This document shows positions 2,450 to 47,454 of a stretch of DNA of 64,000 nt, piece by piece. The stretch spans positions 512,001 through 576,000 of the forward strand of contig CBDHHL010000032.1 in the NCBI GenBank assembly GCA_965263355.1, given 5' to 3'. A model generated the notes under the pieces. That model saw only the letters and a list, made by a program, of their open reading frames with translations, was not told the origin of the DNA and searched no databases. A program made the translations under genes and the position numbers. The DNA comes from Leptolyngbyaceae cyanobacterium (lineage in GTDB: Bacteria; Cyanobacteriota; Cyanobacteriia; Phormidesmidales; Phormidesmidaceae). Position 1 is the first letter of the stretch. Each line of letters begins with the position of its first letter.

Positions 2450-3778
2450 TTAGTTCTCGATCACATCTAAGATAGCTTGATTGCCAAGCGCCTTGTAGTA
2501 AATAATTTCTAAGATAAGGCCGTTAGTATTACCGGTTAAGATGGTGTTTATTTCCTCACTCTCTTCATAGAGACCAGCGTAGAATCCACCTCCGTCAGGA
2601 TCTTGGAGATCTTTTACAGCCTTGATTAGCTTTAAAGTATAAGGTTTTTTGGGAAATAGGTAATACCACCCAAACGCCGCTTTTGTACTAAGCGTGCGTA
2701 GTTCTGGATGGGGCTCATTTTCTTCTGTAATTACAGCCCATGGAGTTCCATTAGCATAAAGAGTGCTATAGAGAAAATGAGGAGCTTGATCAATGTTGTC
2801 TTCAGAGACAGCGGTGAGGTACCCTGTTTCTTTATATCTATTTTCCTGGGCAGCTAGGATGTCTTCTGCATACTCAGCCAGAGTTTCATCCCATCCAAAC
2901 TCAATGGCTTCTAGAATATAAGACTCACTAACTACATAGTTATTAGCGTCAGTTTCTTCAAAATTACGCTGGTCTACAGGGATTTTCACCCCGCTCACAT
3001 CTACCAGTTTCATCGGTTCTGTTTCTAGTGCCTTTGGAACCTCCAATCCCCAAAGCTCATAGCCACGGGCAGCATATTCTTCGTAACCAAGGCGGCCCTC
3101 CTGTACGGGTAAAAGTTTACCATTAGATTTAAAGACCGCACCATAGAGCTGGCCCTCTTTGATAGAACGAGGAAGTTGCCAACCCGACATCAGGTCAGAA
3201 ATCCAATTGTCATATTGGGGATGGCATGTGCGAATGATATGTAGGGCTGTAAGAAAGCGACCAATGTCTAAAGCCGACCAGCCTAATCCTTTTTTGGTGG
3301 GATTGTTTCCATAGTCTACCATCTCTCCGGTAGCACTGTTGTACACCTTATTGGGCAGTGCCCCCTCCACTAGCGGTAGCTCTCCAAGAGAGGTTAAAAA
3401 TTGATTGAGTTGCAGATCAAACTCACCTTGATCAATTAATCCCATCCATCGAACTGCATTCAAGGCCATTAAGTAATTACCTTGATCCCAAAGAGTCCCA
3501 GAGGGAAACTGATTGGCAGAGTTGGTAAATCCGGTTTCTGGTTGCCGATTATTGACAAAGTACTGCCAGGCTGCAGATGCATAGACTTTCTCTTGTTCAG
3601 TTAGAGGAGCGGTTAACTGGCCACAAAGGTTATTGGATGTCTCTTTTGCGGTTGCAGCTTGAGAATCAGACTTGGGACTGTCGATTTCAATGGTGCCACT
3701 AGTACAAGCTGACAAACCACCCATTACTAAAATAATAGCAAATAGACCTTTCAAAATTTGAGATTGATAGAAATTCAT
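2450..3778 (-). CDS. DUF3131 domain lipoprotein (putative glycoside hydrolase, beta-glucanase-like)
   Basis: Lipobox GLSAC after a hydrophobic signal. Motifs AWQYF, TLWDQG, LPNKVY, GWSALDIGR, EGRLGYEEYA, SESYIL, TAVSED, TGNTNGLILE. Confidence 0.85.
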   Translation of the reverse strand: MNFYQSQILKGLFAIILVMGGLSACTSGTIEIDSPKSDSQAATAKETSNNLCGQLTAPLTEQEKVYASAAWQYFVNNRQPETGFTNSANQFPSGTLWDQGNYLMALNAVRWMGLIDQGEFDLQLNQFLTSLGELPLVEGALPNKVYNSATGEMVDYGNNPTKKGLGWSALDIGRFLTALHIIRTCHPQYDNWISDLMSGWQLPRSIKEGQLYGAVFKSNGKLLPVQEGRLGYEEYAARGYELWGLEVPKALETEPMKLVDVSGVKIPVDQRNFEETDANNYVVSESYILEAIEFGWDETLAEYAEDILAAQENRYKETGYLTAVSEDNIDQAPHFLYSTLYANGTPWAVITEENEPHPELRTLSTKAAFGWYYLFPKKPYTLKLIKAVKDLQDPDGGGFYAGLYEESEEINTILTGNTNGLILEIIYYKALGNQAILDVIEN

Positions 3779-3783
3779 ATTTC

Positions 3784-5000
3784 CTAAGAGATATGCGCGA
3801 GTGGGTGACCGTTTTGAGTTTTGTACAACAAACTTTCAAGGATAATGGCGTTAGTATTGACATTGATCGCTTTGTTAGGACCAAGGTCTGGGTTCTCGTA
3901 TCGTCCTGATAGATACCCCTTGTGCTCATCGGCAAGGTTTTGCACTGCTTGTCTGAGGGTTTGGCAGTAATCGTTGTCGGGCAAAAGGCTACTCCAGGCA
4001 AAGGCTGCTTTTGCACTTAGAAAACGCAGATCAGGATGAGTGTTTCCTTTTACATCTGTTGCTGGCCAGGTCTGACCATCAGCATAAACACTGTAATAGA
4101 GAAAATAGGGTTTGCGATCCAGGGCATCTTCGTTTACTACAGTTAGTATGCCCGTGTTAGCATATCGATTTGCTTGAACCTGTAGAAGATTTTCAAGCTG
4201 GGGTTGAGTGGTATCAGGCAACCCTACTTCTATCCCTAAAAGTAAGTATGGATCATTGGTTAGATGATTGCTCGCTCCTGAAGAATTGAGATCGCGCTGA
4301 TCCACTATCAGGTCTACCTGATCAACAGTAACCCCCTGGGTTGGCGGGTTATAAGCGCTTTATCAGCTTCAATTCCCCATAGTTTGAAGCCATAGGCGGC
4401 ATATTGTTCATAACCTAATCGCCCTTCTTGCCAATACTGCAAACCATTACGGCCAGCTCCACTACCCCATAGCCAGCCATCTTTTACAGACTTGTTTAAG
4501 TCATAACGGGTCACGATGGTATTGATGCGATCGCGCAGCTCCGGATAATGGGTTTTAAGTGTGTATAAAGCCACCAGATATCGGCCCAAATCTAACGCAA
4601 ACCAGCCACTTGTCCCGTTGGGGTCAGGGCGATTACTTAATGTCCGCATGGTGGCTGTGTTGGTGCTATAGGCTTTATTCGGTAACCCTGTTGTCGGTAA
4701 GGGTAACTGTTCCAGAGTGCGTAACAGAATCGATAGTTTTTCAACCAATTCTGTTTCAGAAATTAGCCCTAGTTGACGAGCAGCATGGATTCCTAAGAGC
4801 GCACTCCCCTGGTCTCACCAGGTGGCCCAAGGCAGTCCATCAACAGCATTCACCAACCCGGTATCAGGATTCCAGTTATTCTCAAAATAGGTCCACGCTC
4901 GACGAGCCGCTACTCGATCCAGAGAATCTGCCATATGTTCCACACTGTCTAAGGGAAGAGACGGGCTAGCTAACTCAGATATCTCAAGAGATGGAGGAGC
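3784..5000 (-). pseudogene. Decayed third DUF3131 domain of the upstream gene
   Basis: DUF3131 motifs (RRAWTYFENN, LPNKAY, EGRLGYEQYA, NTNAIILE) are interrupted by an in-frame TGA at 4815-4817 (TW*DQG) and a frameshift near 4350 that joins ORFs 4314..4748 and 3784..4305. Confidence 0.85.
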
Positions 5001-7948
5001 TTTTTTTTCTCCTCAATTAGGGCAATTTCTTCATTCAAACCTCTAGAAGTTTCAGCGATATTGGTCTCTCCTCCTTTAGCAACCCAGTATGCTCCCTGGT
5101 CATCGGCAACCATTTCGATGGTTGGTTGAGAGCCTTCGGGAAGGCCTAGCCCCAGTTCATCTCCGTCACGAATGGCATCCCACCACGGAGAGTCCATATC
5201 GTCATGGGGATAGATTAGAGGTTGCTGTTGAGTGTTTTTATGCAGTAAGGCTTGGAGAATTAGACTATTAGTGGAGCCCGTAAACCCAATGGCTCTACGA
5301 CCACCGTTTTCGTAAAAGCCCTCGTAATAACCAAGCTGTTGATTATACAAATCTAGAGTTGCTAGCCAAAGGTCTCGACCATAGTCACTATCAGGAAATA
5401 GGGTGTGATAGGCAAAGGCAACAGCTGTACTCACCACTCGAGAATGGGGAATAACGTCTCCATTATCGTCTACAGCAACCCAAGAACGACCATCGGAGAC
5501 AAGTGTACTATGCACCACATAAGGAGCTTCATTCACTAGGGTAGTTCCTGAAGCACTAAATATACCTGTGTGTTCATACCGAGTGGCTTCGGCCTGGTAA
5601 ATCGCGTCTACTAAGGCACTGATTTGGGGATCAAAGCCAAATTCTAGGCCATATAAGATAAAGGGTGTACTGGTGGTATTTAACAGTTCATTTCGACGAC
5701 GTTGCTCTGGCTGAGACCGATTAGTGGGAACTGCTTGTTCTTCTAGCTTAGTGGTGACATAGTTGCCGCCAACGGCTGAGCGAGAAGCATCAAATCCCCA
5801 CAGCTGAAAAGCCCGGGCGGCATATTCTTCATAGCCAAGGATTTCTGCAGGCTTGACTCGGATGCGATCTCGACCCCGATCATCCTGAGCCAAACGAGCA
5901 TTAGCAATACGGCCATTTCTAACCACTCGTAGATAAGACCAGTCCAAAGCTAACTTATCTACAACATCAGTATATTCGGGATGACAGGTTTTAAGTGTGT
6001 GCAAAGATGCCAATAGTCTTCCAATATCCAGGCCAGACCAGCCATCTCCTTGAGGAATGGAATTACCACCATAATCAATAGGTTCTAGAGAAAGGGTGCT
6101 GTAGGAACGATGAGGAAGCTCTCCAGCAAACAGTTCAATCTCCTGTAAAGCTCCTAGTAAATGCCGAATTCGTTCATCAAACTTTTTAGCATTAATCACA
6201 TCCATTGCCCGAGCAGCATGAAGCGATGCCAAATAATCTCCTATCCCCCAAAGAGTGACACCATCTAGATCACTACGATCAGGGACTAACCCTGAAGGAG
6301 TGTGGTTAGCTTCAAAATATTGCCATGCTGTTTTGGCATAACGCATATCTGTAACATTTAAAGGAGACACTACGGATGAGCAAGCCGAGGAGCGAGGTTT
6401 TTCCACCGGCTCAATAGCCGCAATCGTAACCCCCTCATGAGAAGCAGGCGGTGGTGGAGCAGCTGGAGCAGATTCCGCTGGTGGCGGTGGTTCAGGATTA
6501 CTGGCTGTTTCTGGAGGAGCTGCAGGTGGCGGTGGTTCAGCTGGTGGTGGTTCAGGGCTACTAGCTGTTTCTGGGGGTGGAGGTAAATCTCCTGTATTTT
6601 CCCCCGCTGGCACAGTAGGCACTGAAATAGGAGCACTGCCACTCGCCAACATGGGTATATAACCACGAGCTTTATAGTAAAGAATCTCCAAAATCAGTCC
6701 ATTACTATTACCAGTGAGAATATCATTAATAGGGGGCTGAGCATCATATAGGCCCGATTCATAAATACCTGCATAGTAACCCCGCCCAGAATTAGTTGTA
6801 TCCTTTACATGGTCAAAAATCTTGTGGGCATAGGGATCGTCAGGATAAACATAGCGCCATCCAAACGCAGACTTGGCACTTAAAGTACGCAGTTCAGGAT
6901 GCAGCTCATTATTCTCAGTAATAACGGCCCAGGGCACACCATTGGAATAGACGGTACTGTATAAAAAATAAGGAGCTTGATTAATATTGTCTTCGGAAAC
7001 AGCCGTTAACAGCCCAGTATCTTCAAAGCGTCGTTTCTGCGCTTCAAAGACCCTACGAGCATAATCTGCTTGATCTCCCTCCAGACCAAATTCAATAGCA
7101 TCCAGAATGTAAGACTCACTAACTACATAGTTGTTAGCATTTGTTGTCTGAAAATCCCTTGTATCGTACGGGATTTTTAGCCCATAAATATCTACAAAAT
7201 CAAACGGTTCATATGCGATCGCTTGAGGAGCATCAAATCCCCACAGTGCATACCCTCTCGCAGCATACTCCTCGTATCCTAAGCGTCCTTCCTGTACAGG
7301 TAGTGTACTATCGTCTGGCAAGACAGTAGCTCCATAGAGCATCCCATCTCTGACAGACGCCGCAATATTCCAGCTAGCAAGAATGCCAGCCATCCACTCA
7401 GAATACTGGGGATGACACGTACGTAAAATATGGAATGCTGCTAAAAGGCGACCGATATCCAGAGCTGACCAACCAATGCCTCGCTCTAATGGATTGTTAC
7501 CATAGTCCACCATCTCCCCAGTAGCACTGTTATAAACCTTGTTCGGTAGCGTATCTTCAAATAGACGCAGCTCTCCCAAACCAGCAAGAAATTTATTTAA
7601 TCGGCTATCAAACTCTCCCTGCTCAATTAACCCCATCCACCTAGCCGCATTCATAGCTGCCAGATAATTACCTAAGTCCCATAGCGTACCAGATGGATAA
7701 CCACCTGCAGAGTTGGACAATCCAGTGGATTCTTGAACATTATCCACAAAATAATTCCAGGCTGATTGAGCATAGCCCATTTCCTCTGGGGTCAGGGGTT
7801 GTGTAATTGCAGCACATTGCTCTGGACCATTTTGAGCCACAACGGGAGAGATCTGGAAAATAGATATCCATAGGGTAATAAATACTCCTACAAGCCAATA
7901 GGCAATAAATCTGATCCAGAATCGATGGCGAGTTAATAGTATTAACAC
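4970..7948 (-). CDS. Tandem DUF3131 protein (two intact domains, Pro-rich linker), truncated by a frameshift at an A8 tract
   Basis: N-terminal TM/signal segment. Two copies of the AW.YF / TLW / GWS.LDIGR / LGYEEYA motif set separated by a PPPETASSPEPPP linker. Confidence 0.85.
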   Translation of the reverse strand: MLILLTRHRFWIRFIAYWLVGVFITLWISIFQISPVVAQNGPEQCAAITQPLTPEEMGYAQSAWNYFVDNVQESTGLSNSAGGYPSGTLWDLGNYLAAMNAARWMGLIEQGEFDSRLNKFLAGLGELRLFEDTLPNKVYNSATGEMVDYGNNPLERGIGWSALDIGRLLAAFHILRTCHPQYSEWMAGILASWNIAASVRDGMLYGATVLPDDSTLPVQEGRLGYEEYAARGYALWGFDAPQAIAYEPFDFVDIYGLKIPYDTRDFQTTNANNYVVSESYILDAIEFGLEGDQADYARRVFEAQKRRFEDTGLLTAVSEDNINQAPYFLYSTVYSNGVPWAVITENNELHPELRTLSAKSAFGWRYVYPDDPYAHKIFDHVKDTTNSGRGYYAGIYESGLYDAQPPINDILTGNSNGLILEILYYKARGYIPMLASGSAPISVPTVPAGENTGDLPPPPETASSPEPPPAEPPPPAAPPETASNPEPPPPAESAPAAPPPPASHEGVTIAAIEPVEKPRSSACSSVVSPLNVTDMRYAKTAWQYFEANHTPSGLVPDRSDLDGVTLWGIGDYLASLHAARAMDVINAKKFDERIRHLLGALQEIELFAGELPHRSYSTLSLEPIDYGGNSIPQGDGWSGLDIGRLLASLHTLKTCHPEYTDVVDKLALDWSYLRVVRNGRIANARLAQDDRGRDRIRVKPAEILGYEEYAARAFQLWGFDASRSAVGGNYVTTKLEEQAVPTNRSQPEQRRRNELLNTTSTPFILYGLEFGFDPQISALVDAIYQAEATRYEHTGIFSASGTTLVNEAPYVVHSTLVSDGRSWVAVDDNGDVIPHSRVVSTAVAFAYHTLFPDSDYGRDLWLATLDLYNQQLGYYEGFYENGGRRAIGFTGSTNSLILQALLHKNTQQQPLIYPHDDMDSPWWDAIRDGDELGLGLPEGSQPTIEMVADDQGAYWVAKGGETNIAETSRGLNEEIALIEEKKKLLHLLRYLS

Positions 7949-32688: not shown

Positions 32689-33333
32689 TCACATCCAAAC
32701 GCCATAACAGTACTGTTTCCACAGGCGGACGGTCTTATCTTCACTGGCCGATGCTAATTTTTGACCATTCGGTGAAAATGCTAGGGAGGTCACAGGGCCT
32801 TCATGGCCGTTTAGGGTAGTTAGCAAGCCCCGTTGTTTCCCTAGCTGCCAGATTTGAATCTGACTATTTTCTAGCCCTACAGCCAAGTGCTGTCCGTTAG
32901 GGCTAAAGGCTACGCTCAGCACTTGAGTATCTTTGAAATCAAATCGATCAAGCTGGATTCCATCTGTGTGCCAGACCCTGGCGCTGCCATCGGCACTGGC
33001 CGATGCAATCATTTGGCCATCATTACTGACAGTAGTATCCCAGATAATCCCTTCATGGGCATCCAGGCGATTGCGCTCTCGGATCCAAAACACAGCTTGC
33101 TGTAAAGCCGTCACCACCAGGTCGTCAGAAAATGATTGATTGGGATTAACCGCCGCTTCATTTTTGAGTGCAATCCCTGCTTTCATCGCTTCTAAAAGGG
33201 CCTCAAATGGCTGGTGGGAGCCAAACAGAGCTTCAGAGGTTTCTGTCTGGGCCAAAATTGTTTGAGACTCAGCGTCCTGTCTTGCTTCCTGAGCAATTTC
33301 CTTTTGTTTATCAGCGCGTGTTCTTTTTTGGTT
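32689..33333 (-). pseudogene. WD40-repeat protein fragment, 5' end cut by IS66
   Basis: The frame is open up to the IS66 end. Only ~3 WD40 repeats (GH...FSPNG..LASASEDKTVRLW) precede an abrupt stop. Confidence 0.8.
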
Positions 33334-33334
33334 G

Positions 33335-34896
33335 GTAACTACTTAGGCTGTGGCAGAGGTGATTGAGGATTTCCAGAGAACAAATCGACAAGCGCGTCCC
33401 ACACATTGTGCCCTTGTTTTCGTAAAGTAGCCAAATAGCCACGAATACGACAGAACTGTTTAGCCCCATCCTCAGATCGGAAGCATCCCGAGATTTTCTG
33501 TTTCAGTTTCATCATGCGGAGGTCACGCTCGGCTTGATTGTTGTCAAAGGGAATCGAGAAATCGTACATAAAGCCGAGTACCGAGACCTTTTGATTACGT
33601 AAGCGCTTCAGTAGGTTAAGCGGGGGTGGACGTTTCGGTCGTCCCCGTTTTTTGGGTTTTGACGGAGGGGGCATTGGGTTTTGGGCAAACCCCTGCTCTA
33701 AAATGGCGTCATATCGGGACTCAAATGCGGCCAAGTCCTCAATCGATACCCTCTGTTTCCCCTGGGCTTTAAGGCTTTCGAGGTGAGTATGAATCGTCAC
33801 CAATAGCAGACTTAGTTGAAAGGCCCACCACTGACCATAACGTTCTAGCATGTACTGCAGTTCTCTCAAATGATGGGCATTACACAGAAAATGCTCACAG
33901 TCATACAGTGGGTAACTCTTCCAACCATCATGCACGGCCTTACCCTCAACCTCTGGTAACACTCCCATCGCCTCCATGGCCACTTGCCCCCGTTTGGGAT
34001 GGACAAAGTAGTAGGTCAACCCATTGGTTGAGGCTACATGCAACCACCACAGACGCTGATTGACCCGCAGACTGGTCTCATCAAAGTGAACAACCTCACT
34101 GGCCTCTATGGCTTGCTTAATCGTTGCCTCTATCGGCCCTAGATGCTCAAAGCACTGGTCACGGGTGGTGTAAAACGTTCCGTCTGAAACGCTCACGTTC
34201 ATTAAGTCCTTCAACACCTCACAGGCTCGATGCGACGGTAACAGTTGTCCCTCCATCAGGTACACCATCATGGCCTTGAGACGAGGACCATACTGCACAA
34301 CCGTGCTGGCCTCAGCAGGAAAGCTCCCTTGAGTGGACTGACCACATTTCGGGCCACGTTTTACCTCGACTTGATGCTCAGTGACCAATGACTCTATCGG
34401 TCGAATGTCAACTACTTGACGAGCTAACACCTCATCGACAGGGACACTCACTAACGACTCTCCACACCCTGAACACACCGTCACCTCATGGGGAGTCACA
34501 AAATCCGGATCGCTGCTCCATTCAAGGGTATGACCGCGATGACCAGGCTGACCACCCGATGACTTGTCGCTTTTACGCCGTAAGCTCTTAGTGCGTTTCC
34601 CAAAGCCATCACCTGACGGTGGTTTATGACTATTTCGACTGGTTTTGCCTAAGCGGCCTTTGAGCTCACTGACTTGGGTTTCTACCTTGGTGAGACGTTC
34701 CATCAACTGAGTCACCAAACTCACCACAGCCTCTTCTCCTTCCGCATACACTGCACGGATCTCTGCTTCGCTCAGCTGAATTGGTGGGTGTTGCTTGCTC
34801 ACTGGTCACCTACCTGGAACCTGACCATCAGTTAGGATATTTCATTTGCATAACAATCTTTGGAAAATCTCTATTTTTTTAAGCCTAAGTAGTTAC
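33335..34896 (-). mobile_element. IS66-family insertion sequence (transposase-only type)
   Basis: Perfect 15-bp terminal IRs GTAACTACTTAGGCT (33335) / AGCCTAAGTAGTTAC (34896), starting with the IS66-typical GTAA. No 8-bp target duplication. Confidence 0.92.
33339..34802 (-). CDS. tnpC: IS66 family transposase (TnpC)
   Basis: SRNSHKPPSGD, GGQPGH, zinc-finger region, HFDET, VHDG, CNAHHLRE, NNQAERDLR...K.SG.FRS. Confidence 0.93.
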   Translation of the reverse strand: MSKQHPPIQLSEAEIRAVYAEGEEAVVSLVTQLMERLTKVETQVSELKGRLGKTSRNSHKPPSGDGFGKRTKSLRRKSDKSSGGQPGHRGHTLEWSSDPDFVTPHEVTVCSGCGESLVSVPVDEVLARQVVDIRPIESLVTEHQVEVKRGPKCGQSTQGSFPAEASTVVQYGPRLKAMMVYLMEGQLLPSHRACEVLKDLMNVSVSDGTFYTTRDQCFEHLGPIEATIKQAIEASEVVHFDETSLRVNQRLWWLHVASTNGLTYYFVHPKRGQVAMEAMGVLPEVEGKAVHDGWKSYPLYDCEHFLCNAHHLRELQYMLERYGQWWAFQLSLLLVTIHTHLESLKAQGKQRVSIEDLAAFESRYDAILEQGFAQNPMPPPSKPKKRGRPKRPPPLNLLKRLRNQKVSVLGFMYDFSIPFDNNQAERDLRMMKLKQKISGCFRSEDGAKQFCRIRGYLATLRKQGHNVWDALVDLFSGNPQSPLPQPK

Positions 34897-34991
34897 CATC
34901 TACCAAAGTATCGATGAGGTATTAGATGCTATTCATCAAAAAATACTTGCTATTCAAAGTTGACAAGCTATTGTCAACGAATGTCTTGCAC

Positions 34992-35034
34992 GGAGGGGGC
35001 TTCGGGCGTTAGCGCTAGGTGTCGAGCCCCCTCC
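34992..35034. repeat. GC-rich REP-like hairpin
   Basis: Perfect 10-bp stem ggagggggct / agccccctcc. Confidence 0.5.
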
Positions 35035-35200
35035 CTGACGGTGCCCCTTGCTTTACGCTTTAGTGCATGCCCGGAGGGCTTTAGGGGAATCCTTGGTGGA
35101 GTATCTTGAAACTATTGGTTTTCAAGGGTTTCAGCTATTCTCTCTGACCTTATGTATACACCGTAGCCTGGGAGGAACATTGGGGGGCACACACAGCCCA

Positions 35201-35890
35201 CTAAACCAAATCAGGATCTATCCCCAACGCCCTTAACTTCTCCGCCAGTCGGTCCGCCCGCGCCTTTTCTTGTTCTACTCTTTCCTCGGGTGTTCTCAAC
35301 CGTTGCCCAGTCTCGTTATACCAATACAACCATTCTCGCTCTCGGCCCAAGTAAGTTCCTCGTTCTCGGCCCAGACCCAACCCAATTTTAGGCAACCAAA
35401 CCGGATTTCCAGATAATGCTTCATATTCACCATCCACTAACTGATAAATCTCCAGGGGCTGACGCTTACGACGCGGGTGCCCATCTGGCAGATACACCGC
35501 ATAGTAGTCAACCTCCAACTCTGCATACAGTTTTTTCTTGCGTTCGTACTCACCACCATAGGTTTTCGAAACCACTTCTAAAGCCAGTGTTGGAGAAATA
35601 TTATCCTCTTCCCACATCACATAGCTCAGTCGCCCCCCTTCGCCAATGAATCGTTCTACACCCAAACTCAAAAAACCATCCGGCACCACCGCTGGCGCAC
35701 TGGGGTCAAAATAAATCCCCATATCTACCCCAAAAAACCAATCCTCACGCTCTGGCCAGATCATCGCCAAAATCGCTTCGAGTAAATTGGGAATCAAATT
35801 CTGTAACTCATTATCCACAGGCGTATCATCCGAGTCCGGTAACTCAGCAGAGGAGGGTAAGCATTGCTTTGGGTCAAACTTTAAAACCAT
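35201..35890 (-). CDS. Uma2 (DUF820) family putative endonuclease
   Basis: LPSSAELPDSDDTPVDNELQ, PDGF, LEVVS, and a C-terminal 'LAEKLRALGIDPD'. Confidence 0.92.
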   Translation of the reverse strand: MVLKFDPKQCLPSSAELPDSDDTPVDNELQNLIPNLLEAILAMIWPEREDWFFGVDMGIYFDPSAPAVVPDGFLSLGVERFIGEGGRLSYVMWEEDNISPTLALEVVSKTYGGEYERKKKLYAELEVDYYAVYLPDGHPRRKRQPLEIYQLVDGEYEALSGNPVWLPKIGLGLGRERGTYLGREREWLYWYNETGQRLRTPEERVEQEKARADRLAEKLRALGIDPDLV

Positions 35891-37580: not shown

Positions 37581-38666
37581 TTAGTCCTCTCTTTTCTTTG
37601 CCAAAATCTCTTCAATCCATACTTGATGCTTTTCATTCTCAAAGCGTTTCAAATAGGCTAGGGCAATTTGTCCCACCGCTGGGTTCTCTTCAATCGCGTC
37701 TAACAGTCTGTGAGTTGTACGTTGTAATATCGCTCGCTCAATCTGTTGATGGGTTGCCACCGGTACCAGGATGGCGGCCAAAACGACCCCGATCCCGGCT
37801 GGAATCATTGGCATCAACCAGCCCAGTAAAAATCCTCCATAGACACCACTGGTTAACCCGGTCAGCAACGCCATGATCAATAACGCCACCTCAAGGGTTG
37901 CTCTCGCCAATAGATGCCCGCCACACCGCCCGCCGTGGTCCAGACCAAAATCCAGACAATCTCCTGCCATTCCTGCCAGCTTTTGAATAAAGGCCGACCG
38001 TCAAGGGCTGAGCGCAACAACATACTAACGGTATTGGCATGGACCGTTACCCCAGCCATGGAAACGGTTTCGCGGGTGGTATAGGGGGTAATCAACACAT
38101 TGTTGACGGTGGAGGCGACGGAGCCGATTAAGACGATGCGATCGCGAATCACCTCCTCAGGCACCTCTCCATTCAGCACCTGGGTGAGAGAAAAAGTGGG
38201 AAACTGCGATCGCACCCTCACATAGTTCAGCATCACCTGATAACCATTGGCATCGGCCCGAATATAGCTGCCCTCATAGGGGCTTAATGGCTTCAGCATG
38301 GCCTGCCCCAAACGCACCGCATTGGCTGGACGGTTAACTGCCTCAAAAGCAATCCCTTCCTGTTCTAAATAGGCCAGCACCAGCTTGGATGAAAAGCTAA
38401 ACAATAGGGTGCCCGGTTCCGGCTCGATGGACAACAACGCCCGTCGGATAGACCCATCATTCTATATCTGCTTGCTCTAGCCGTGCCATGGTTTTGACAC
38501 TCAAGCTAGACTTACCCATCTGGCGGGCCGTCAGAATATAGCAAAACTCCCCCCGACAGACCGCATCATAGAGCGCACTATCCGCCTGCCGTTGCACATA
38601 GCTAAGAGCCTGGGTGGGCAAACTCCCCCCCACTTGATACTGAAATCCAGGCTGTTGTTCCGTCAT
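37581..38666 (-). pseudogene. AAA_35-CHASE2 protein with a large internal deletion and a frameshift
   Basis: N-terminus YQVGGSLP...YVQRQAD...RQMGKSSL (Walker A) abuts mid-CHASE2 'DGSIRRALL' at ~38458. It continues with RDRIVLIG, GVTVHAN and TMs, with a further frameshift near 37890. Confidence 0.8.
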
Positions 38667-38681
38667 ATCTATTGTTCTAAA

Positions 38682-41600
38682 TTAGACGCTTCGATAGCGA
38701 TAGGTCATATACCCCACCGCACCACCGGTAAGCCCCCAAGCCATTAGTGCCGGTACCCAAGGTATCCAAATAGCTGACCACACCATAGAACCATAACAAG
38801 CGATGGTTAAAACGCCGATCGAGCCAGCGCTGGCGAGCAACAATGGCCGCAGTCGCACACATCGCCAAAAGATCAAGCCGCCAACACCAGACCACAGTAA
38901 AATCCAGCCCGATTCTTCCACAAATGACCACCAGCGGATGAGAGGGCGTTCCTCTAAGGCCGCATTGATCAGTTGGCTAATCATTTGTCCATGGACATAA
39001 ACTCCAGGAATAGAATCGCCATAAGGGGTATTGAAATCATCGGAGTTGCGATCGCTAAAATCTGTATAGCCAATTAGGACAATGCGATCGCGAATCAGCG
39101 CAGGATCAACCTTGTCCTGAATGACAGCTTCTAAAGAAACCTGCTGAGCAAAATCCTTTAGCCGAGAACCCCGTCCTTGGGACTCTGGATCGTCATAGGT
39201 GCGAAAGTTGATCAGAGTTTGATAGTCTATCCAACTACTCCAGCCTAGATTTTCGGTCATCGCACTATAGGCAGTGCCGTTACTATCAATATTGGGTACT
39301 ACAACAGTATTAAAGGAAATAACACCGACTGTTTCTGCATCGCTAGTATTTTCATAGGTAATCCCTTCGGTCTCAAGATACGTCTTAGCCAACAACAAAC
39401 TAAAGGACTCCTCAGTGAGACAAGAACTATCGCCACTAACCTGCTGAGTTAAATAGTGACGGCGCACAATGTTGCCACCATCCTGGAGGAAATTAGCAAA
39501 ACCAACCCGAGTCTCGGGCATTTCGTTGCCGATATCGCCAACCTGTTCGTTAGCCTGTTTGTCAGCTGTCTGACAAATACCAAACAAATTATCCATCCAA
39601 GCCAAATCGTTGGCCAAAGCCCCCTTAGCCGGAAAATCACGGAAAAAGTCTAACCCAATCAAACGAGCATCATGGCGATTGAGAACTCTAATAGCCTCTG
39701 AAAGTGCATTCTCAGGAATCGTACCAATACCAGGGGTATAACGACCATCAATCATCTGTTGCCGTAGCCACTCGCCACTGGGGAAATCTACCTTAACAAT
39801 TAGCAGCCGCTCATCCTGTTCAGTTTCATTGGGCCGCCACCGCAGGAACTGGTCATAAGCGCGAGTTTCTAGGGGCTGAAAACCACCCAATAGTCTGATG
39901 ACAGAAACTGCTAAGGCACTGACTACCGTCGCTAATGCCACGGATCGAGCTTTGATTTTCTTAAATGGCAAGGCCTGACTGGCCTGAATATAAGCTTTTT
40001 GCAGGGCAGTAACCGATGGTGTTTTGTCCTGGGCCTGCTCTAACCAACGGACTGATTCTGCCAGGTCATTCCCCCGTAGTAAAAAACTCTCATCCCGCTG
40101 GGCAGCGTCCCATTCAGCGGCTTTGACTAACAGGCGTGTGTGCGATCGCACATGATGCGGATCGCTTTCCAAGGTGCGAAACAACTCGCCAAAGTTCACC
40201 AGAAAGTCACCGTCATGTCGTCGAAAATCACTCCAGGGTAATGACTCGATCCCTTCCGGCAGTGTAGATTTCACCACAGCCCGATAGATCACCGGTAAGA
40301 TACGTTTTTGCTGGGACCGGGCATAGGCTAGCTGATCTAGACAGGCCTGACACCGGACAGCACTGGGCGACAAAATAAACAGAACAGTTTCAGCATTATC
40401 AATCAGCAGGTGAGTATCGTCTAGTCGGTCAGTCTCACCTGCCGAACCGTCCGGTGATAACCAGGCACTTTTGCCTTGAACTAACAACGTTTCATTAAGC
40501 CGATGAGAAAAATCATAATCATCAATATGGTGAATAAAAAAGACCCCCAGGGTTTGATCGGGAGACTGCCTTTGACTGGCATCCAAAAACGCTAGCTGTA
40601 GGGGCAATGCGCCGTTTGGCTGACGATTCTTAGCGGTTTGAGCCCAGGCTAAATAGGTATCCTGTATCTGACGCTGTAGGAGCAAACTCGGGTTTTGTTG
40701 TTGTCGTTCCCACTTAAGTGCTCGCACCAAAAGACGTTTGTGTTGATTATGGTATGAAGCCTCTCTCTGGATCGCCTGCAACAGCTCTGCCATATCTTTT
40801 TCTAAATCGATAGAGGCTTGATTGTCAGTGAGATTAATAAATTGAATCTTACGAATGGTTTCTGGTATCAGTGCTAAATTCACATCCTCCACCAGCATAG
40901 GAATCACCCGTTTGTTTAGGTCTAGCGCTTGATCAATTTCCTGTTGACAATAAACTGAGGCAAGGGATGCCTGGGAAATCAGATAGACAACATTGTCAGC
41001 CTCTTCCAGACCCCGCTGGATAGCAACTTCAAAGTCTTCACCCATACGGATATCCACCGTACTGGTCCAAACTGTCACACCAGCTTGTAGTAAGTGATAG
41101 CGAACAATTTCCTTTGTGGTTAAATCTTCTTCGGCACAGGAGATAAAGACCTGGGTCATGCCACCGTCGGCAGCCTTGATACTTTCTGTAATAAACTCTG
41201 CTTGCACCAGGTTCGGTTTACAGGGCAGTTGCTCCTTAGTAAATTCCGTCTGCAGCCAAGTTTGCGCCCGCAGTCGTTCCTCTCCCATCAGTAAGTAAGT
41301 GGCTTGACGTTGGTGACGCTCCCAGGCGAGGGCACTAATCAAGAGTTCAGTGTGCTGATGGACATAGTCTTCATGCCGATGACACAGCTCTATCAGTCCA
41401 TTAATGGCAGTGTCTAAATCATCGATGCCTGGACGGGCGTTGATCCAATTGATCCGACCAATGTCAGGGGGCATATTGGGGAAACTCGAATGTTTCCCCT
41501 TGGCTTTATAGATTTTCCAATGATCCGGACTGTCTGAAGGATTGCGAGCTTTCCAGGTGGAATAGCCAATTTCTTCCACCTGCAAAATGGGGATAATTCG

Positions 41601-43166
41601 CTTGTTGTATTTCAGTGCCAGGGAAATTTCCTTCGCACAGTAGGGCGAGTTAATGGAGTGAGGGCTGATGATAAATATAAAATTGTGGCTTTTTTCGATG
41701 CCGTCATTGATTTGTGCCTGGAAGTCTACGCCTAGGGGAATATCATTTTGATCAAACCAGACCTGAAACCCGTGGCGATTGAGCTGTTGACACAGATCAG
41801 TGGCAAAGGCTTTACTATCGATGCGACCATAGGAAATAAAAGCATCATAGAACTGATTAATACCTTGACTGGCCTGGATATAGGCGGTGTGCAAATCGGT
41901 GGGAGAACTGCCCGATGGACTGGGTTCCGATAGCCAGGCTTGGGCCATGGCAAAGGCATCGGACCTGAGTAAAAACTTGCGATCGCGATCCTGACGTTCC
42001 CAGGCCAATGCCTTTACCAACAGACGTTTATGTTGGTCCACATAGTCTGCCGAGGTCCTGAGAGTGCGAATAAGCTTATCTATAGCCTGATCAAAGTGAC
42101 TATCAGACGCTAGGGACGAAAAATCAATAAACTGCAACGCGCGCAAGTCGGTGGGCAATGTTGCCATATCCATGGACTGCACCAGCAGTGGAATGATCCG
42201 CTTATGGTAGCGACGAGCATAGGCGCATTCCTGTTGACAATAGCTTGACGCTAACGCATTAGGAGACAGCAATAAAACAATATTGTCGGTTTTTTCAATA
42301 CCCCGATTGATAGCGACCTGAAAGTCTTCAGCGGTGGGAATGTCTACGGTATTTACCCAAACCGTTACCCCCTCACGCATCATGCGCTTACGGACCTTCT
42401 CCTGAATGGCCATATCCTCTTTACTGTAGGATATAAAAACTTGAGTCATCTGGTCATTGGCAGCCTTCAGACTTTCCGTAATAAATTCGCACTGTAAGTC
42501 AGTGGGGATACAGGGCGGTTGTTTGTCTTTAAAGCGAATGTTTAACCATTGTGCTGCCTTCGCCAATTTCTCAGTATCTGTTAACAAATAGTTGGCCTGA
42601 CGCTGCTGACGCTGCCAGCTGAGAGATTGTAGCAACAGCTGTGTATGTTGGTGCACATAGGGGTGATATTGGGTCAGCATGGTTTGTAATCCAGCCATGC
42701 CTGTCTCAAAGTTATCTATCCCCTCACGCAAGTACACCCAGTCAATTTTTCGAATCTCAGGGTGCATATTGGGAAAACTGCTGTGCATTCCCTTTTCTTG
42801 GAGGGCATGCCAGTCGCCTGTATCGGCATCCGGAGTAAGCTGTTGCCAGGTTTCGTAGCTGATTTCCTCAATATGCAACAGTGGAATAATGCGCTTACTA
42901 TGGGTCAGCGCTAGCTCGATTTCCCGAGTACAGTAAGGGGAATTAACAGAATAGGGAGAAATAATAAAGAGAAAATTATCTGCATTCTCAATGGCATCCT
43001 CAATCTGATTTTGATACCCCATCCCCTGAGGACTATGCTCAAAATCAACCCAGACCTCTAACCCTGCCTCAACGAGGTGATCATAGATCTGCTTGGTAAA
43101 CAAACGGCTGTCTGTCCTGCCATAAGAAATAAAGACATCCTGCAGAAAAGAAGGAGGGGGTGTCAT
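38682..43166 (-). CDS. Five-TIR-domain / CHASE2 membrane protein
   Basis: TIR starts DVFISYGR, QVFISYSK, DAFISYGR, QVFISCAE and GVFFIHH. These are followed by a TM, CHASE2 (IGLDFFRD, DGGNIVRR, RDRIVLIG, PGVYVHG) and three C-terminal TMs. Confidence 0.9.
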   Translation of the reverse strand: MTPPPSFLQDVFISYGRTDSRLFTKQIYDHLVEAGLEVWVDFEHSPQGMGYQNQIEDAIENADNFLFIISPYSVNSPYCTREIELALTHSKRIIPLLHIEEISYETWQQLTPDADTGDWHALQEKGMHSSFPNMHPEIRKIDWVYLREGIDNFETGMAGLQTMLTQYHPYVHQHTQLLLQSLSWQRQQRQANYLLTDTEKLAKAAQWLNIRFKDKQPPCIPTDLQCEFITESLKAANDQMTQVFISYSKEDMAIQEKVRKRMMREGVTVWVNTVDIPTAEDFQVAINRGIEKTDNIVLLLSPNALASSYCQQECAYARRYHKRIIPLLVQSMDMATLPTDLRALQFIDFSSLASDSHFDQAIDKLIRTLRTSADYVDQHKRLLVKALAWERQDRDRKFLLRSDAFAMAQAWLSEPSPSGSSPTDLHTAYIQASQGINQFYDAFISYGRIDSKAFATDLCQQLNRHGFQVWFDQNDIPLGVDFQAQINDGIEKSHNFIFIISPHSINSPYCAKEISLALKYNKRIIPILQVEEIGYSTWKARNPSDSPDHWKIYKAKGKHSSFPNMPPDIGRINWINARPGIDDLDTAINGLIELCHRHEDYVHQHTELLISALAWERHQRQATYLLMGEERLRAQTWLQTEFTKEQLPCKPNLVQAEFITESIKAADGGMTQVFISCAEEDLTTKEIVRYHLLQAGVTVWTSTVDIRMGEDFEVAIQRGLEEADNVVYLISQASLASVYCQQEIDQALDLNKRVIPMLVEDVNLALIPETIRKIQFINLTDNQASIDLEKDMAELLQAIQREASYHNQHKRLLVRALKWERQQQNPSLLLQRQIQDTYLAWAQTAKNRQPNGALPLQLAFLDASQRQSPDQTLGVFFIHHIDDYDFSHRLNETLLVQGKSAWLSPDGSAGETDRLDDTHLLIDNAETVLFILSPSAVRCQACLDQLAYARSQQKRILPVIYRAVVKSTLPEGIESLPWSDFRRHDGDFLVNFGELFRTLESDPHHVRSHTRLLVKAAEWDAAQRDESFLLRGNDLAESVRWLEQAQDKTPSVTALQKAYIQASQALPFKKIKARSVALATVVSALAVSVIRLLGGFQPLETRAYDQFLRWRPNETEQDERLLIVKVDFPSGEWLRQQMIDGRYTPGIGTIPENALSEAIRVLNRHDARLIGLDFFRDFPAKGALANDLAWMDNLFGICQTADKQANEQVGDIGNEMPETRVGFANFLQDGGNIVRRHYLTQQVSGDSSCLTEESFSLLLAKTYLETEGITYENTSDAETVGVISFNTVVVPNIDSNGTAYSAMTENLGWSSWIDYQTLINFRTYDDPESQGRGSRLKDFAQQVSLEAVIQDKVDPALIRDRIVLIGYTDFSDRNSDDFNTPYGDSIPGVYVHGQMISQLINAALEERPLIRWWSFVEESGWILLWSGVGGLIFWRCVRLRPLLLASAGSIGVLTIACYGSMVWSAIWIPWVPALMAWGLTGGAVGYMTYRYRSV

Positions 43167-44403: not shown

Positions 44404-44807
44404 GGAGCTAGTAGATGAAACAACAGAGATAAATAGCAGCCAAGAGAACTTAAATAGAATCCACAGGAGGTGCTACAAGCAATAAGCAATTGAATACCAG
44501 CAATCTCACTGACAACAACCAACGCTAAGACTCATTTAATTACCTACATCAGCCCATACCTTTAGCAATAGTTACAAAGCCTAGCCAATGCAATGAACCG
44601 ATAACATTTATAGAAAATTTATGCTAGCTCAAATAATAATGAAGAATTTATACTTTAGCGATGGTGCCCAGATAAAACCAACAAGATAAATTGTTCGTAA
44701 GTTAATTTTTATAAATCTAAGAGTTAGTTTACAAAGCTAAAGCGTGTACCTTTGAGTTGCGTTTTAGCTAAAAAGCTTGTCCTTGACTCGCATCTAATCA
44801 AAATAAA

Positions 44808-46337
44808 ATGGCCAAGAAAAGTTCTTACAACGATTATCTTAAGCAAACCCTAGGAGGGTTAATTGATAGGCTTGATATTTCAGAGTTACGTAAGGAATTT
44901 CTCAAAAATCGCTGGCTAGATCAGGTGATGTGGCTAGAAGGAAAGGCCACTAAAGAGCGGGATAGACACTACAAGCTGCGTTTGGTAACTATCATTGGCG
45001 GTGTGATTGTTCCAGTCATGGTAGGCCTAAACCTTGAAGGTCCGCTCGAAAAGCAGCTTAAGTATGCCGCCCTTGGGCTAAGTACAATAGTGGCTATTTC
45101 CGCTGCTGTCGAAGAATTCTTTTTGCCGAGTGAGAAGTACCGCAATTATCGTAGTACGGCAGAAAGCATGAAAATTGAGGGTTGGCAGTTTATGCAATTG
45201 GCAGGCCCTTATCGTAAATTCAAGGTTCATTCAGACGCCTATAAGATATTTGCCCAACGGGTTGAAGCCTATATTCAAAAAGATGTAGAAGGGTTCATTG
45301 CCCGTTTAGAAGAGAAACAGGAGGAAAGTAAGGAGGACGCTGATGAGGCGGCCAATAACGTTGAACAGACCCTTATGAGTCTCAATCAACAGTTAGAGGA
45401 AGAACGGGCGCAGCGTTTGGAGTTAGAGCGTGCACGTTTGGCTGAACAACAAGCTAGCAGTCCATCACCGACCCTGGATGATGGAGGTGGTTATTCTGGT
45501 TCCCTGATGGATATTCAGATGCCTCCATCTACTGATGAGGGAGATTTTGAGGAAAGCTTACCCCAGGAAAGCCGCCTGACTGAACCGTTGGCTGGTGTGC
45601 AGTCCCTGATGTCATCACAACCAACGGCTAGCCGAACCCGTGAAGTTTCCAGTAGAACAATTAAGACATCTAGTAGCCTCCCTCCCTTAGGTCAATATGC
45701 CCTGGAATGGGAGGAAACGGTTGACTTTAACGCGCTAAAAACAATTTTGACTGAGCAGAATAGTACTGGCACCCAGACCAATGGAGGGGCTAGTGGCGCT
45801 GAACCTCAGTTAACTACACCTGATGAAGTTTCTCAAATCTTGGAATGTCCGTTAGAAGACTGCAAAGTCTATCTGCCAGGCGTTTTACTGGCGATGCAAA
45901 AGTACGACATCTATGACAAGTCCGTATTGATTGGTCTATTAGCCACCATTCGCATTGAGACTGGCGGTTTCAAACCGGTCCATGAATGGGGAGGAGAAAG
46001 CTACTGGAAACGCTACGAAGATCGAGCAGATTTGGGTAATGTTAACCCTGGTGATGGCGTGAAATACCATGGCCGTGGCTACATTCAGCTTACAGGACGG
46101 GCTAATTACCATGACTATGGTAAGAAGCTGGGTGTGGATCTTGAAAATAATCCAGATTTAGCCATGGATCCTGAAATATCAGCTCAAGTTCTGGCCTGCT
46201 ACTTCAAAGAGCGTGGTGTGGCAACGGCGGCCCGTGAAAACGATTGGCGACGCGTACGCAAGTTAGTTAATGGTGGTTACCACGGCTGGGATGTGTTTTC
46301 AAGATATGTTGAGCGGGCTCAGGCTCGATTGGCATAA
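44808..46337 (+). CDS. SLATT (DUF4231) 2TM domain fused to a GH19 lysozyme/chitinase domain
   Basis: N-terminal RWLDQV.W...TM...TM...YRSTAESMKIEGWQFMQLAGPY. Coiled coil and low-complexity linker. C-terminal IETGG..VHE, YHGRGYIQLTGRANY, VNGG. Confidence 0.85.
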   Translation: MAKKSSYNDYLKQTLGGLIDRLDISELRKEFLKNRWLDQVMWLEGKATKERDRHYKLRLVTIIGGVIVPVMVGLNLEGPLEKQLKYAALGLSTIVAISAAVEEFFLPSEKYRNYRSTAESMKIEGWQFMQLAGPYRKFKVHSDAYKIFAQRVEAYIQKDVEGFIARLEEKQEESKEDADEAANNVEQTLMSLNQQLEEERAQRLELERARLAEQQASSPSPTLDDGGGYSGSLMDIQMPPSTDEGDFEESLPQESRLTEPLAGVQSLMSSQPTASRTREVSSRTIKTSSSLPPLGQYALEWEETVDFNALKTILTEQNSTGTQTNGGASGAEPQLTTPDEVSQILECPLEDCKVYLPGVLLAMQKYDIYDKSVLIGLLATIRIETGGFKPVHEWGGESYWKRYEDRADLGNVNPGDGVKYHGRGYIQLTGRANYHDYGKKLGVDLENNPDLAMDPEISAQVLACYFKERGVATAARENDWRRVRKLVNGGYHGWDVFSRYVERAQARLA

Positions 46338-46662: not shown

Positions 46663-47454
46663 ATGCCCAAAACTTCAGCTGACGAACTTGTTGAACATAG
46701 GTTTTCTAATGGGCAGCTGGCCAAAATACTCAAGGTGGCTGACAGTACTGGTTATAAAAAAGCATTATCAATTGTTGGCTTACAGGGGCCGACACCTACA
46801 TTGTTGGTGATTGGTGGAGCTAGCAATATGACGCCTGAAAGTCAGGCAAAGCTAATTCAATTCTTTAATAATGCATTAGCAATCTTGTCAGAAAGATTAG
46901 GGATTACCGTATTAGACGGTGGCACTGATGCTGGGGTGATCCATATGATGGGGCAAGCGCGTTATCACGTCAGCGGTCAGTTTAATCTTGTTGGAGTTGC
47001 CCCGCTAAATAGGGTTATTTTTCCAGTTGATGAGATGCCTTTACCAGCCTCGGATGATGAAAACTATCCTCCAGTAGAATTGGAACCCCATCACACCCAC
47101 TTTTTTCTAGTTCCTGGTGAAAACTGGGGTAGTGAGTCGCGATGGCTAGCAAGATTTTCGTCAGTTTTGGCCGGACATTTTCCCTCCATGACTTTACTAA
47201 TTAATGGAGGTCAGGTATCTCTCAAGGACTTGAAGCTCAATTTAGAGTTTGGTAGGCAAGTTACGATCATCGCTGGCAGTGGTCGTTTAGCAGATGCGGT
47301 GGCCGATACTATTAGCGGTGTAGCCCCCTCTGAAGATAAAACGATCCAGCATTTAGTAAACACCTATTATCCCAGCCAGTTGTCGGTCTTTAATCTCCTA
47401 TCAAGTTCATTAGATGACTTAAAGGCTCAATTGGACATCTATTTTGATTGCTAA
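46663..47454 (+). CDS. SLOG superfamily protein, TRPM-like (LSDAT) type
   Basis: VIGGA, VLDGGTDAGVIHMMG, LEPHHTHFFLVPG..WGSE, INGG, AGSGRLAD motifs. Confidence 0.85.
   Translation: MPKTSADELVEHRFSNGQLAKILKVADSTGYKKALSIVGLQGPTPTLLVIGGASNMTPESQAKLIQFFNNALAILSERLGITVLDGGTDAGVIHMMGQARYHVSGQFNLVGVAPLNRVIFPVDEMPLPASDDENYPPVELEPHHTHFFLVPGENWGSESRWLARFSSVLAGHFPSMTLLINGGQVSLKDLKLNLEFGRQVTIIAGSGRLADAVADTISGVAPSEDKTIQHLVNTYYPSQLSVFNLLSSSLDDLKAQLDIYFDC

Follow-up and report, generated by a model that had tools for sequence, protein, structure and literature searches.

A predicted SLATT pore domain joined to interchangeable wall hydrolases in cyanobacteria, a candidate signal-gated self-lysis system

What use might a cyanobacterium have for a wall-cutting lysozyme that is made as the tail of a predicted membrane pore protein? 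The question is raised by a gene in a 64,000-nucleotide stretch of the genome of a Leptolyngbyaceae cyanobacterium (GenBank assembly GCA_965263355.1, contig CBDHHL010000032.1, positions 512,001 to 576,000 of the forward strand), referred to here as the window. An earlier reading of this DNA from its letters and open reading frames (ORFs), the sequence-only reading, described the gene product as a holin-endolysin-like single polypeptide consisting of a SLATT pore domain and a GH19 lysozyme. With a probability that we put at about 0.52, the fusion would be a signal-gated device for self-lysis, in which a TIR protein supplies a signal, a SLOG protein senses it, the SLATT domain opens a lesion and the tethered lysozyme acts through it. 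We favour this reading because of the domains themselves, the intact pair of glutamates, the purifying selection on the gene, the repeated exchange of the enzyme, and the linkage of the gene to SLOG, TIR and second-hydrolase genes.

That the two domains belong to one polypeptide is borne out by profile searches, in which every match within a single frame of 509 residues lies above its cut-off: DUF4231 (PF14015) at residues 38-141 (101.5 bits against 24.7), SLATT_1 (NF033634) at residues 31-166 (99.8 bits against 41) and GH19 (PF00182; 32 bits against 25.5). Residues 306-508 also match the endolysin family phrog_181 (E value 3e-45). The sequence motifs singled out earlier, IETGG with E384, VHE with E393, and GRGYIQLTG, are all present, and both glutamates are invariant in 34 of 34 homologues. 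The full-length structural model has a helix at residues 26-73, its hairpin partner at 79-105, a further long helix at 141-217 and a well-folded C-terminal domain, while the predicted local distance difference test score (pLDDT) is below 50 at residues 218-306 and 318-330; the coiled coil and the disordered linker of the sequence-only reading are both found in this model, the linker being about 116 residues long rather than about 130. As judged from hydrophobicity only, the gene product has no signal peptide, again as had been proposed, there being no hydrophobic window of 19 residues that starts before residue 53. The spacer between the SLATT domain and the enzyme measures 110-268 residues in all 34 aligned fusion homologues, and neither a conserved cleavage site nor an internal start is visible in their linkers. 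Ratios of nonsynonymous to synonymous polymorphism (pN/pS), obtained from 91 pairs among 14 genes in the closest clade with synonymous sites near saturation, are 0.09 for GH19, 0.16 for SLATT, 0.26 for the coil and 0.41 for the linker; the fusion gene is under purifying selection, and GH19 is its most constrained region. Nor is the architecture confined to one assembly: SLATT is combined with a wall hydrolase in 111 of the best 120 of 321 homologues, and 47 of 70 genome loci, in records from Leptolyngbyaceae-like cyanobacteria, Coleofasciculaceae and Nostocales, contain such a fusion, which rules out an assembly artefact.

Chitinases are among the known members of the GH19 family. The domain might accordingly be pictured as a chitinase directed at chytrid fungi or chitin-bearing grazers; chytrids do infect filamentous cyanobacteria (PMC9415839), the lower-ranked PDB matches of the domain are chitinases, and some annotations read "predicted chitinase". 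We find this extremely improbable, for phage or lytic GH19 proteins take the first six places among the PDB sequence matches and chitinases rank below them. The top match is the PWe2 endolysin (9ms7; E value 5e-23, TM-score 0.82 over the target), Foldseek gives the same ranking, and E384 falls in the alignment on the glutamate of the HES motif in PWe2 and SPN1S. An endolysin-like rather than a chitinase-like domain is supported by these sequence and fold comparisons, in agreement with its earlier description as a lysozyme, the cutting of peptidoglycan being a prediction. Viral loci matching the fusion number at least 80, and 80 of 80 do so through the GH19 part only; the nearest viral GH19 among the matches listed is a stand-alone protein with 47% identity on a 200-kb viral contig. 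These matches are consistent with the capture of the domain from a phage, and transfer may have run either way. We rejected the possibility that the locus is itself a phage lysis cassette: the SLATT part has no match in IMG/VR or in 50,697 phage records, and no phage genes were seen in the window ORFs scanned.

Further evidence on the substrate comes from the enzymes found in the relatives. The 111 fused proteins among the best 120 homologues comprise 80 that join SLATT to GH19 of the window kind, 6 and 1 with two other kinds of GH19, and 24 with GH24. A HMMER search with the SLATT part alone yielded 1419 clusters, each taken as its 50%-cluster representative, and the best 150 of these consist of 126 proteins with SLATT alone, 7 SLOG-SLATT proteins, 2 that end after an SH3-like part and 15 with a C-terminus of wall-hydrolase type. 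Represented among those 15 are GH19 (in three kinds), GH24, M15A, a C39-like domain, counted as a predicted wall hydrolase since PHROGs files it under endolysin families, and a Cys/His domain counted as NlpC/P60-like, which the Atlas puts with NlpC/P60 and CHAP at 0.95. Scanning 44 longer representatives with Pfam revealed no C-terminal enzyme family other than wall hydrolases. No fused form of 892-2545 residues scored among 582 candidates, which is weak evidence. In a quick tree of 20 fusions together with the first 30 suitable of the 80 viral loci, each of the three fused GH19 kinds groups separately among the 30 viral GH19s; on a quick tree of SLATT (112 rows, those with fewer than 125 aligned residues having been left out), the enzyme labels need 16 changes where the minimum is 7, and GH24 stands at three places. 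Read in this way, the sequences show an enzyme that has been exchanged repeatedly, among at least five unrelated hydrolase classes. GH19, GH24, M15A, C39-like and NlpC/P60-like enzymes have peptidoglycan as their shared substrate. Since the repeated swaps are among classes of peptidoglycan hydrolase, and the GH24, M15A, C39-like and NlpC/P60-like replacements are not chitinases, the exchange points to a fusion enzyme that would act on peptidoglycan and not on chitin.

Polymorphic C-terminal domains on a conserved N-terminus could also mark an outward weapon, freed by lysis or in vesicles to attack competing or predatory bacteria, the swaps then being part of an arms race like that of polymorphic toxins; a gene for a protein of 102-111 residues that follows the GH24 version in Nostocales could supply immunity. 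We hold this to be rather improbable, given that neither the window nor the GH19 loci have such a small gene, that no recurring secretion-system genes lie nearby, that whole clades keep one enzyme under strong conservation, unlike the tips of fast-turnover toxins, and that SLOG and TIR, as its partners, work within the producing cell.

The sequence-only reading named the SLOG gene as something to include in a toxicity check of the fusion, and a link between the two genes is now strongly supported. The neighbour's LSDAT_prok hidden Markov model (HMM) score is 184.9 bits (cut-off 25.4). Across 301 cyanobacterial genomes, the SLATT clade occurs in 23 and SLOG in 23, with both in 21, and SLOG turns up in just 2 of the 278 SLATT-negative genomes; the seven fused SLOG-SLATT proteins add to the case. 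In the 20 SLATT-positive genomes first examined, SLOG lies within 7 kb of SLATT in 15 and TIR in 4. The best match of the SLOG profile is TRPM2 (E value 1.6e-19), in its ADP-ribose-binding MHR1/2 region. When the six ADP-ribose (ADPR)-site residues given for zebrafish TRPM2 (PMC8145809) are compared, four have identical or similar counterparts (T186, R334, T312 and Y271 align with T88, R208, S186 and W155 of SLOG, the S186 column being Thr in most aligned rows), whereas T150 and R278 are without a kept counterpart. The SLOG partner is thus homologous to TRPM2 and differs from it in these two losses and in working with a SLATT hairpin instead of a channel of six transmembrane (TM) segments; ADPR is its predicted ligand.

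SLOG lies downstream of the fusion gene; upstream of it and on the opposite strand, a gene encodes a protein with five TIR domains and a CHASE2 domain, the predicted source of the signal. The glutamate at the catalytic position of the C..E motif is kept in four of the five TIR domains, the fifth having Gln. This TIR clade occurs in 10 of the 301 genomes, nine of which are SLATT-positive; it is present in three of the four sampled genomes with a fused hydrolase, and a TIR gene lies inside the locus in 27 of the 47 fused loci. Between the TIR and fusion genes is a second wall hydrolase gene, which encodes an M15A peptidase without any hydrophobic segment and is found in 33 of the 47 fused loci as compared to none of the 23 unfused loci, some of the latter being short contigs. 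Its N-terminal domain has no Pfam or PHROG match, and the nearest Atlas clusters are viral hypothetical proteins (0.93), lysozyme-like ones reaching only 0.8; the middle part we take to be SH3-like from the appearance of its motifs, a label without support from searches. The Nostocales version retains the same N-terminal domains and has a phrog_3000/33083 ending in place of M15A, and both endings have also been found fused to SLATT (L062, P0212). The coordinates of all these features are collected in Table 1.

Table 1. The fusion gene, its parts and its neighbours, by position in the window
Feature	Position	Strand	Basis
SLATT-coil-linker-GH19 fusion gene, 509 aa, single open frame	44808..46337	+	ORF, family searches and predicted structure
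SLATT_1/DUF4231 domain, residues 31-166	44898..45305	+	HMM matches; model pLDDT 94.9
Hydrophobic helix 1, residues 57-75, predicted TM1, preceded by basic flank	44976..45032	+	hydrophobicity scoring
Hydrophobic helix 2, residues 88-106, predicted TM2	45069..45125	+	hydrophobicity scoring
Long helix / coiled coil, residues 141-217	45228..45458	+	predicted structure
Disordered linker, acidic and S/T/P/G-rich, residues 218-333	45459..45806	+	predicted structure
GH19 lysozyme-type domain, residues 334-509	45807..46334	+	PF00182, homologue alignment, PDB matches
Codons of E384 and E393	45957-45959; 45984-45986	+	inside GH19 domain
SLOG (LSDAT_prok) protein, 263 aa, predicted signal sensor	46663..47454	+	HMM and TRPM2 match
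1494-aa protein: five TIR domains, TM, CHASE2, C-terminal TMs; predicted signal maker	38682..43166	-	family searches
Second wall hydrolase, 397 aa, M15A peptidase with SRH/D/H zinc-site residues	43210..44403	-	family searches
AT-rich conserved block, divergent intergenic region	44600..44765	.	alignment of 12 intergenic regions

The sequence-only reading had the hydrolase facing the cytoplasm, away from peptidoglycan, until the membrane is breached or the linker is cut. All 34 homologues have a basic flank ahead of helix 1, and in 31 of the 34 a loop of 8-15 residues joins the helices, features that agree with the proposal as a prediction and, taken together, suggest that both ends of the hairpin lie in the cytoplasm. 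The two helices are less persuasive. Their crude Hessa sums, 4.5 and 4.6, lie between those of clear TM segments in two neighbouring membrane proteins (1.4-2.4) and those of the best windows of two soluble enzymes (5.5-7.3), so that with both helices only marginally hydrophobic the two-TM topology is itself predicted, a point that tells against self-lysis as we conceive it. If instead the membrane is spanned by one helix only, or the hairpin has the opposite orientation, the lysozyme would always be periplasmic and the protein a membrane-anchored housekeeping autolysin, in keeping with its stable inheritance and with a flank past helix 2 without strong basic character, most homologues having about 3 K/R there to 4 D/E. 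This strikes us as distinctly improbable in view of the flank and loop just described; moreover, the roughly 65 residues past helix 2, which a model of high confidence packs against the N-terminal helices, equal the helices in conservation, and an autolysin is hard to square with a domain found in only 23 of 301 genomes and with relatives most of which carry no enzyme. The SLATT part modelled alone has the pLDDT given in Table 1. The PDB contains no solved relative of the domain, the matches being generic helical hairpins (best Z 8.4).

Under the self-lysis reading, the multi-TIR neighbour would make an NAD-derived signal, presumably a ligand of the ADPR type, and the SLOG partner would read it and pass it on through a contact with SLATT that the fused relatives suggest. 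SLATT would then oligomerise to form membrane lesions, wide enough, we suppose, for a folded domain of 20 kDa. The GH19 enzyme, probably cytoplasmic at rest, would be held by a linker that could serve as a leash of sufficient length for the enzyme to reach the wall; having passed the lesion, the tethered lysozyme would cut the cell's own peptidoglycan, and the free M15A peptidase may follow through the same lesions. The purpose would be the fast destruction of one compromised cell and, in filaments, breakage of the trichome at that point. The trigger could be infection, as in Thoeris, or an envelope or developmental cue received via CHASE2, and the data fit both. On this reading the system is likely to be akin to type VII Thoeris, with the logic of holin and endolysin brought under a signalling trigger. 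As to the SLATT and endolysin-type GH19 parts, the holin-endolysin comparison of the sequence-only reading stands, but it was incomplete in missing that the enzyme is interchangeable as well as the multi-TIR gene and the second hydrolase, and it is the multi-TIR gene together with a second hydrolase lacking a signal peptide that turns a "holin-endolysin" into a candidate lysis system controlled by signalling.

Several observations weigh against this reading. The co-occurrence of SLOG and SLATT is less independent than it looks, as 13 of the 39 rows of the SLOG profile come from the sampled genomes and only the near-absence of SLOG from SLATT-negative genomes is independent; the sampled genomes are also related, with large ones over-represented among the positives, and Fisher values overstate the significance. 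The pore domain would normally work without an enzyme, since 126 of the 150 SLATT representatives lack one and only four of the 23 SLATT-positive genomes have a fused hydrolase. No single protein with SLOG, SLATT and a hydrolase occurs among the best 150 of the 1419 representatives. Signalling partners are not constant, either: 14 of the 23 SLATT-positive genomes have no match to the TIR query from the window, the TIR gene of the window points away from those for SLATT and SLOG, and five of the 47 fused loci are without any signalling gene nearby, although searches of four of those five genomes located both SLOG and TIR at other places. The TIR-CHASE2 gene of Nostocales is also accompanied by DUF928, CHAT and TPS genes and therefore may serve another pathway. 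Finally, the locus lies between the housekeeping genes rbp, rpsU and carB, its synteny is preserved throughout the Leptothoe/Adonisia clade, Pfam finds mostly two-component and metabolic genes in the remainder of the window, and PADLOC matched only the TIR protein among the four window proteins scanned. By these checks of window neighbours, synteny in relatives and PADLOC, the locus is core-chromosomal and not a defence island.

A locus of such stability favours a developmental or envelope-stress trigger, or else non-lethal export, over a classical, patchily distributed anti-phage system. Controlled export would proceed in the manner of type 10 secretion, in which a pore in the inner membrane works with a wall hydrolase, with or without lysis of the cell (PMC13721041): a SLOG-gated SLATT would let signal-less hydrolases into the periplasm for local remodelling of the wall or release of cargo from the cytoplasm, and the cell would often survive. 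Besides the stable, core-chromosomal position of the locus, the SLATT genomes without a TIR match (14 of 23) and the TPS-domain exoprotein genes that flank some Nostocales loci fit this picture. No constant cargo gene was noticed across the loci, however, a tethered enzyme is not secreted cargo unless it is cut free, for which no conserved cleavage site is visible, and SLATT effectors characterised in the sources consulted halt growth once activated. We consider export unlikely, while taking it seriously, and prefer self-lysis.

How much of this is new? SLOG(LSDAT_prok)-SLATT systems (Pfam PF18171, PF14015/PF18181) were reportedly predicted by Burroughs et al. in 2015. As a predicted nucleotide-responsive pore effector (PMC7159879, PMC9503650), SLATT has appeared in print next to SLOG or TIR (PMC7159879, PMC9503650, bioRxiv 10.64898/2026.04.29.721553). 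The window shares with these SLOG-SLATT systems the same two families, adjacent or fused, and differs in that an interchangeable peptidoglycan hydrolase has been added and a second hydrolase gene is present. In type VII Thoeris, canonical cyclic ADP-ribose (cADPR) made by the TIR protein ThsB activates the SLATT effector ThsH, which is predicted to oligomerise in the membrane (bioRxiv 10.64898/2025.12.03.692087). That system resembles ours, as far as it is described there, in having a SLATT effector linked to TIR genes with a catalytic glutamate and in its occurrence in Cyanobacteriota. Unlike it, the SLATT protein here bears a wall hydrolase and has a separate TRPM-like SLOG partner, the TIR protein is a 1494-residue multi-TIR membrane protein with CHASE2 (WD40 in relatives), and the genes are divergent and core-chromosomal. 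In place of an operon, the TIR gene is on the other strand, 1.6 kb from the fusion gene and beyond the gene for M15A (TIR and SLATT are co-directional only in some relatives, L026, L035, L045 and L192 among them), and in place of defence genes there are housekeeping and two-component neighbours whose synteny is stable in relatives. We have not classed the locus as type VII Thoeris, given that its operon and defence-island features are absent here and that a cADPR signal is only predicted. The main text of bioRxiv 10.64898/2025.12.03.692087 contains no occurrence of lysozyme, peptidoglycan, DUF4231 or "fused".

An inner-membrane lesion gives a signal-less hydrolase access to the wall both in type 10 secretion and in phage lysis (PMC13721041). 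The fusion is like these systems in combining a membrane lesion, predicted here, with a signal-less hydrolase of phage-endolysin type, and its gene layout fits that of type 10 secretion, an inner-membrane pore (by prediction) beside a wall hydrolase. It is unlike them in being one polypeptide rather than two and in having no prophage context, and unlike phage lysis in that control apparently lies with a nucleotide-sensing partner and not with a holin timer; SLATT is not known to be a holin family. Known effectors of TIR signalling deplete NAD, cleave proteins or open the membrane, and none in the sources consulted has a wall-degrading enzyme. No description of a SLATT-wall hydrolase fusion was found in the literature searched, although earlier family surveys or the supplementary tables of Thoeris papers could list it; what appears to be new, within that literature, is the fusion of SLATT to interchangeable wall hydrolases, the SLATT pore beside SLOG or TIR being already known.

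Necridia and trichome breakage are forms of regulated cell death in cyanobacteria (PMC9415839). A bolder form of the self-lysis reading, which we regard as doubtful, would give the fusion the role of executioner when cells of filamentous cyanobacteria die sacrificially, with a Toll-like membrane receptor (CHASE2 on the outside, TIR on the inside), an ADPR-type messenger, a stand-alone TRPM2-like sensor, a SLATT pore and a leashed, domesticated phage endolysin acting in turn so that the filament is cut at the doomed cell. Unfused SLATT is also present in unicellular Microcystis. If true, this would provide a molecular basis for necridia or for firebreaks against infection, and the first nucleotide-signalling system to have wall lysis as its output via a pore-enzyme fusion. 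The repeated recruitment of unrelated peptidoglycan hydrolases suggests that SLATT lesions may pass folded proteins as holins do, a testable statement about a large family for which the PDB search found no solved relative.

The intergenic block between the divergent genes is strongly kept in 9 of the 12 regions aligned and includes the inverted pair ATTTATAGAAA ... TTTTTATAAAT; it is likely to be a shared promoter or operator, to which a regulator may bind. A scan for promoters and terminators gave results at or below chance level. Directly behind the TIR-CHASE2 gene (37581-38666, minus strand) is an apparent decayed gene, in which a short piece with an ATG start and a stop is followed by CHASE2 C-terminal and TM-rich fragments in other frames; its first piece presumably corresponds to the start of an AAA/STAND ATPase, which it resembles. 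The Nostocales protein of 102-111 residues, encoded between the SLATT-GH24 gene and the second hydrolase (L026:8534-8869, with equivalents in L025, L027-L029, L031, L033-L035 and L037), is conserved, belongs to no Pfam, PHROG or NCBIfam family and is a candidate inhibitor or adaptor.

Among other arrangements of SLATT, tandem genes with different tips (NlpC/P60-like, then C39 plus GH19) adjoin a SLOG gene at two loci (L192:5346-9100 and L195:7089-9951), the first pair lying between the SLOG gene and a TIR-WD40 gene. The Moorena loci L045:1621-11012 and L046 have, in order, a short SLATT gene, TIR-WD40, SLATT-GH19 and a TIR protein, and in P0223 two SLATT domains are fused to a ParA/MinD-like NTPase. 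Beside some relatives of the fusion are TPR-S proteins, weakly N-hydrolase-like, which recall the effector ThsI of type VIII Thoeris as the sources consulted describe it. Such a SLATT-TPR-S protein occurs in 9 of the 47 fused loci, its match to N-hydrolases being weak (DNPH1 at E values of 0.4-0.8; NDT in 2 of 11 members at 0.08). The label "DRHyd/N-hydrolase-like" is our assumption from the appearance of motifs, at best weakly supported by the searches. Proteins of about 1060-1080 residues at L039:2716-5895 and L017:8833-12075 consist of tandem SLATT-like units, a weakly N-hydrolase-like domain and TPR-S; their C-terminal domain, which matches no Pfam family, is encoded alone at L049:6188-6844, between TIR-WD40 and SLATT genes, in the place of LSDAT.

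Elsewhere in the window, there are three adjacent DUF3131 genes (2450-7948, minus strand), of which one encodes the domain twice and another is just a fragment, and a low-GC cluster (0.37-0.44) at 8541-28911 encodes histidine kinases, response regulators, and GGDEF/EAL and PAS/GAF proteins. At 32689-35890 an IS66 transposase adjoins a short WD40 ORF, which may be the remnant of an interrupted gene, and a Uma2-like gene.

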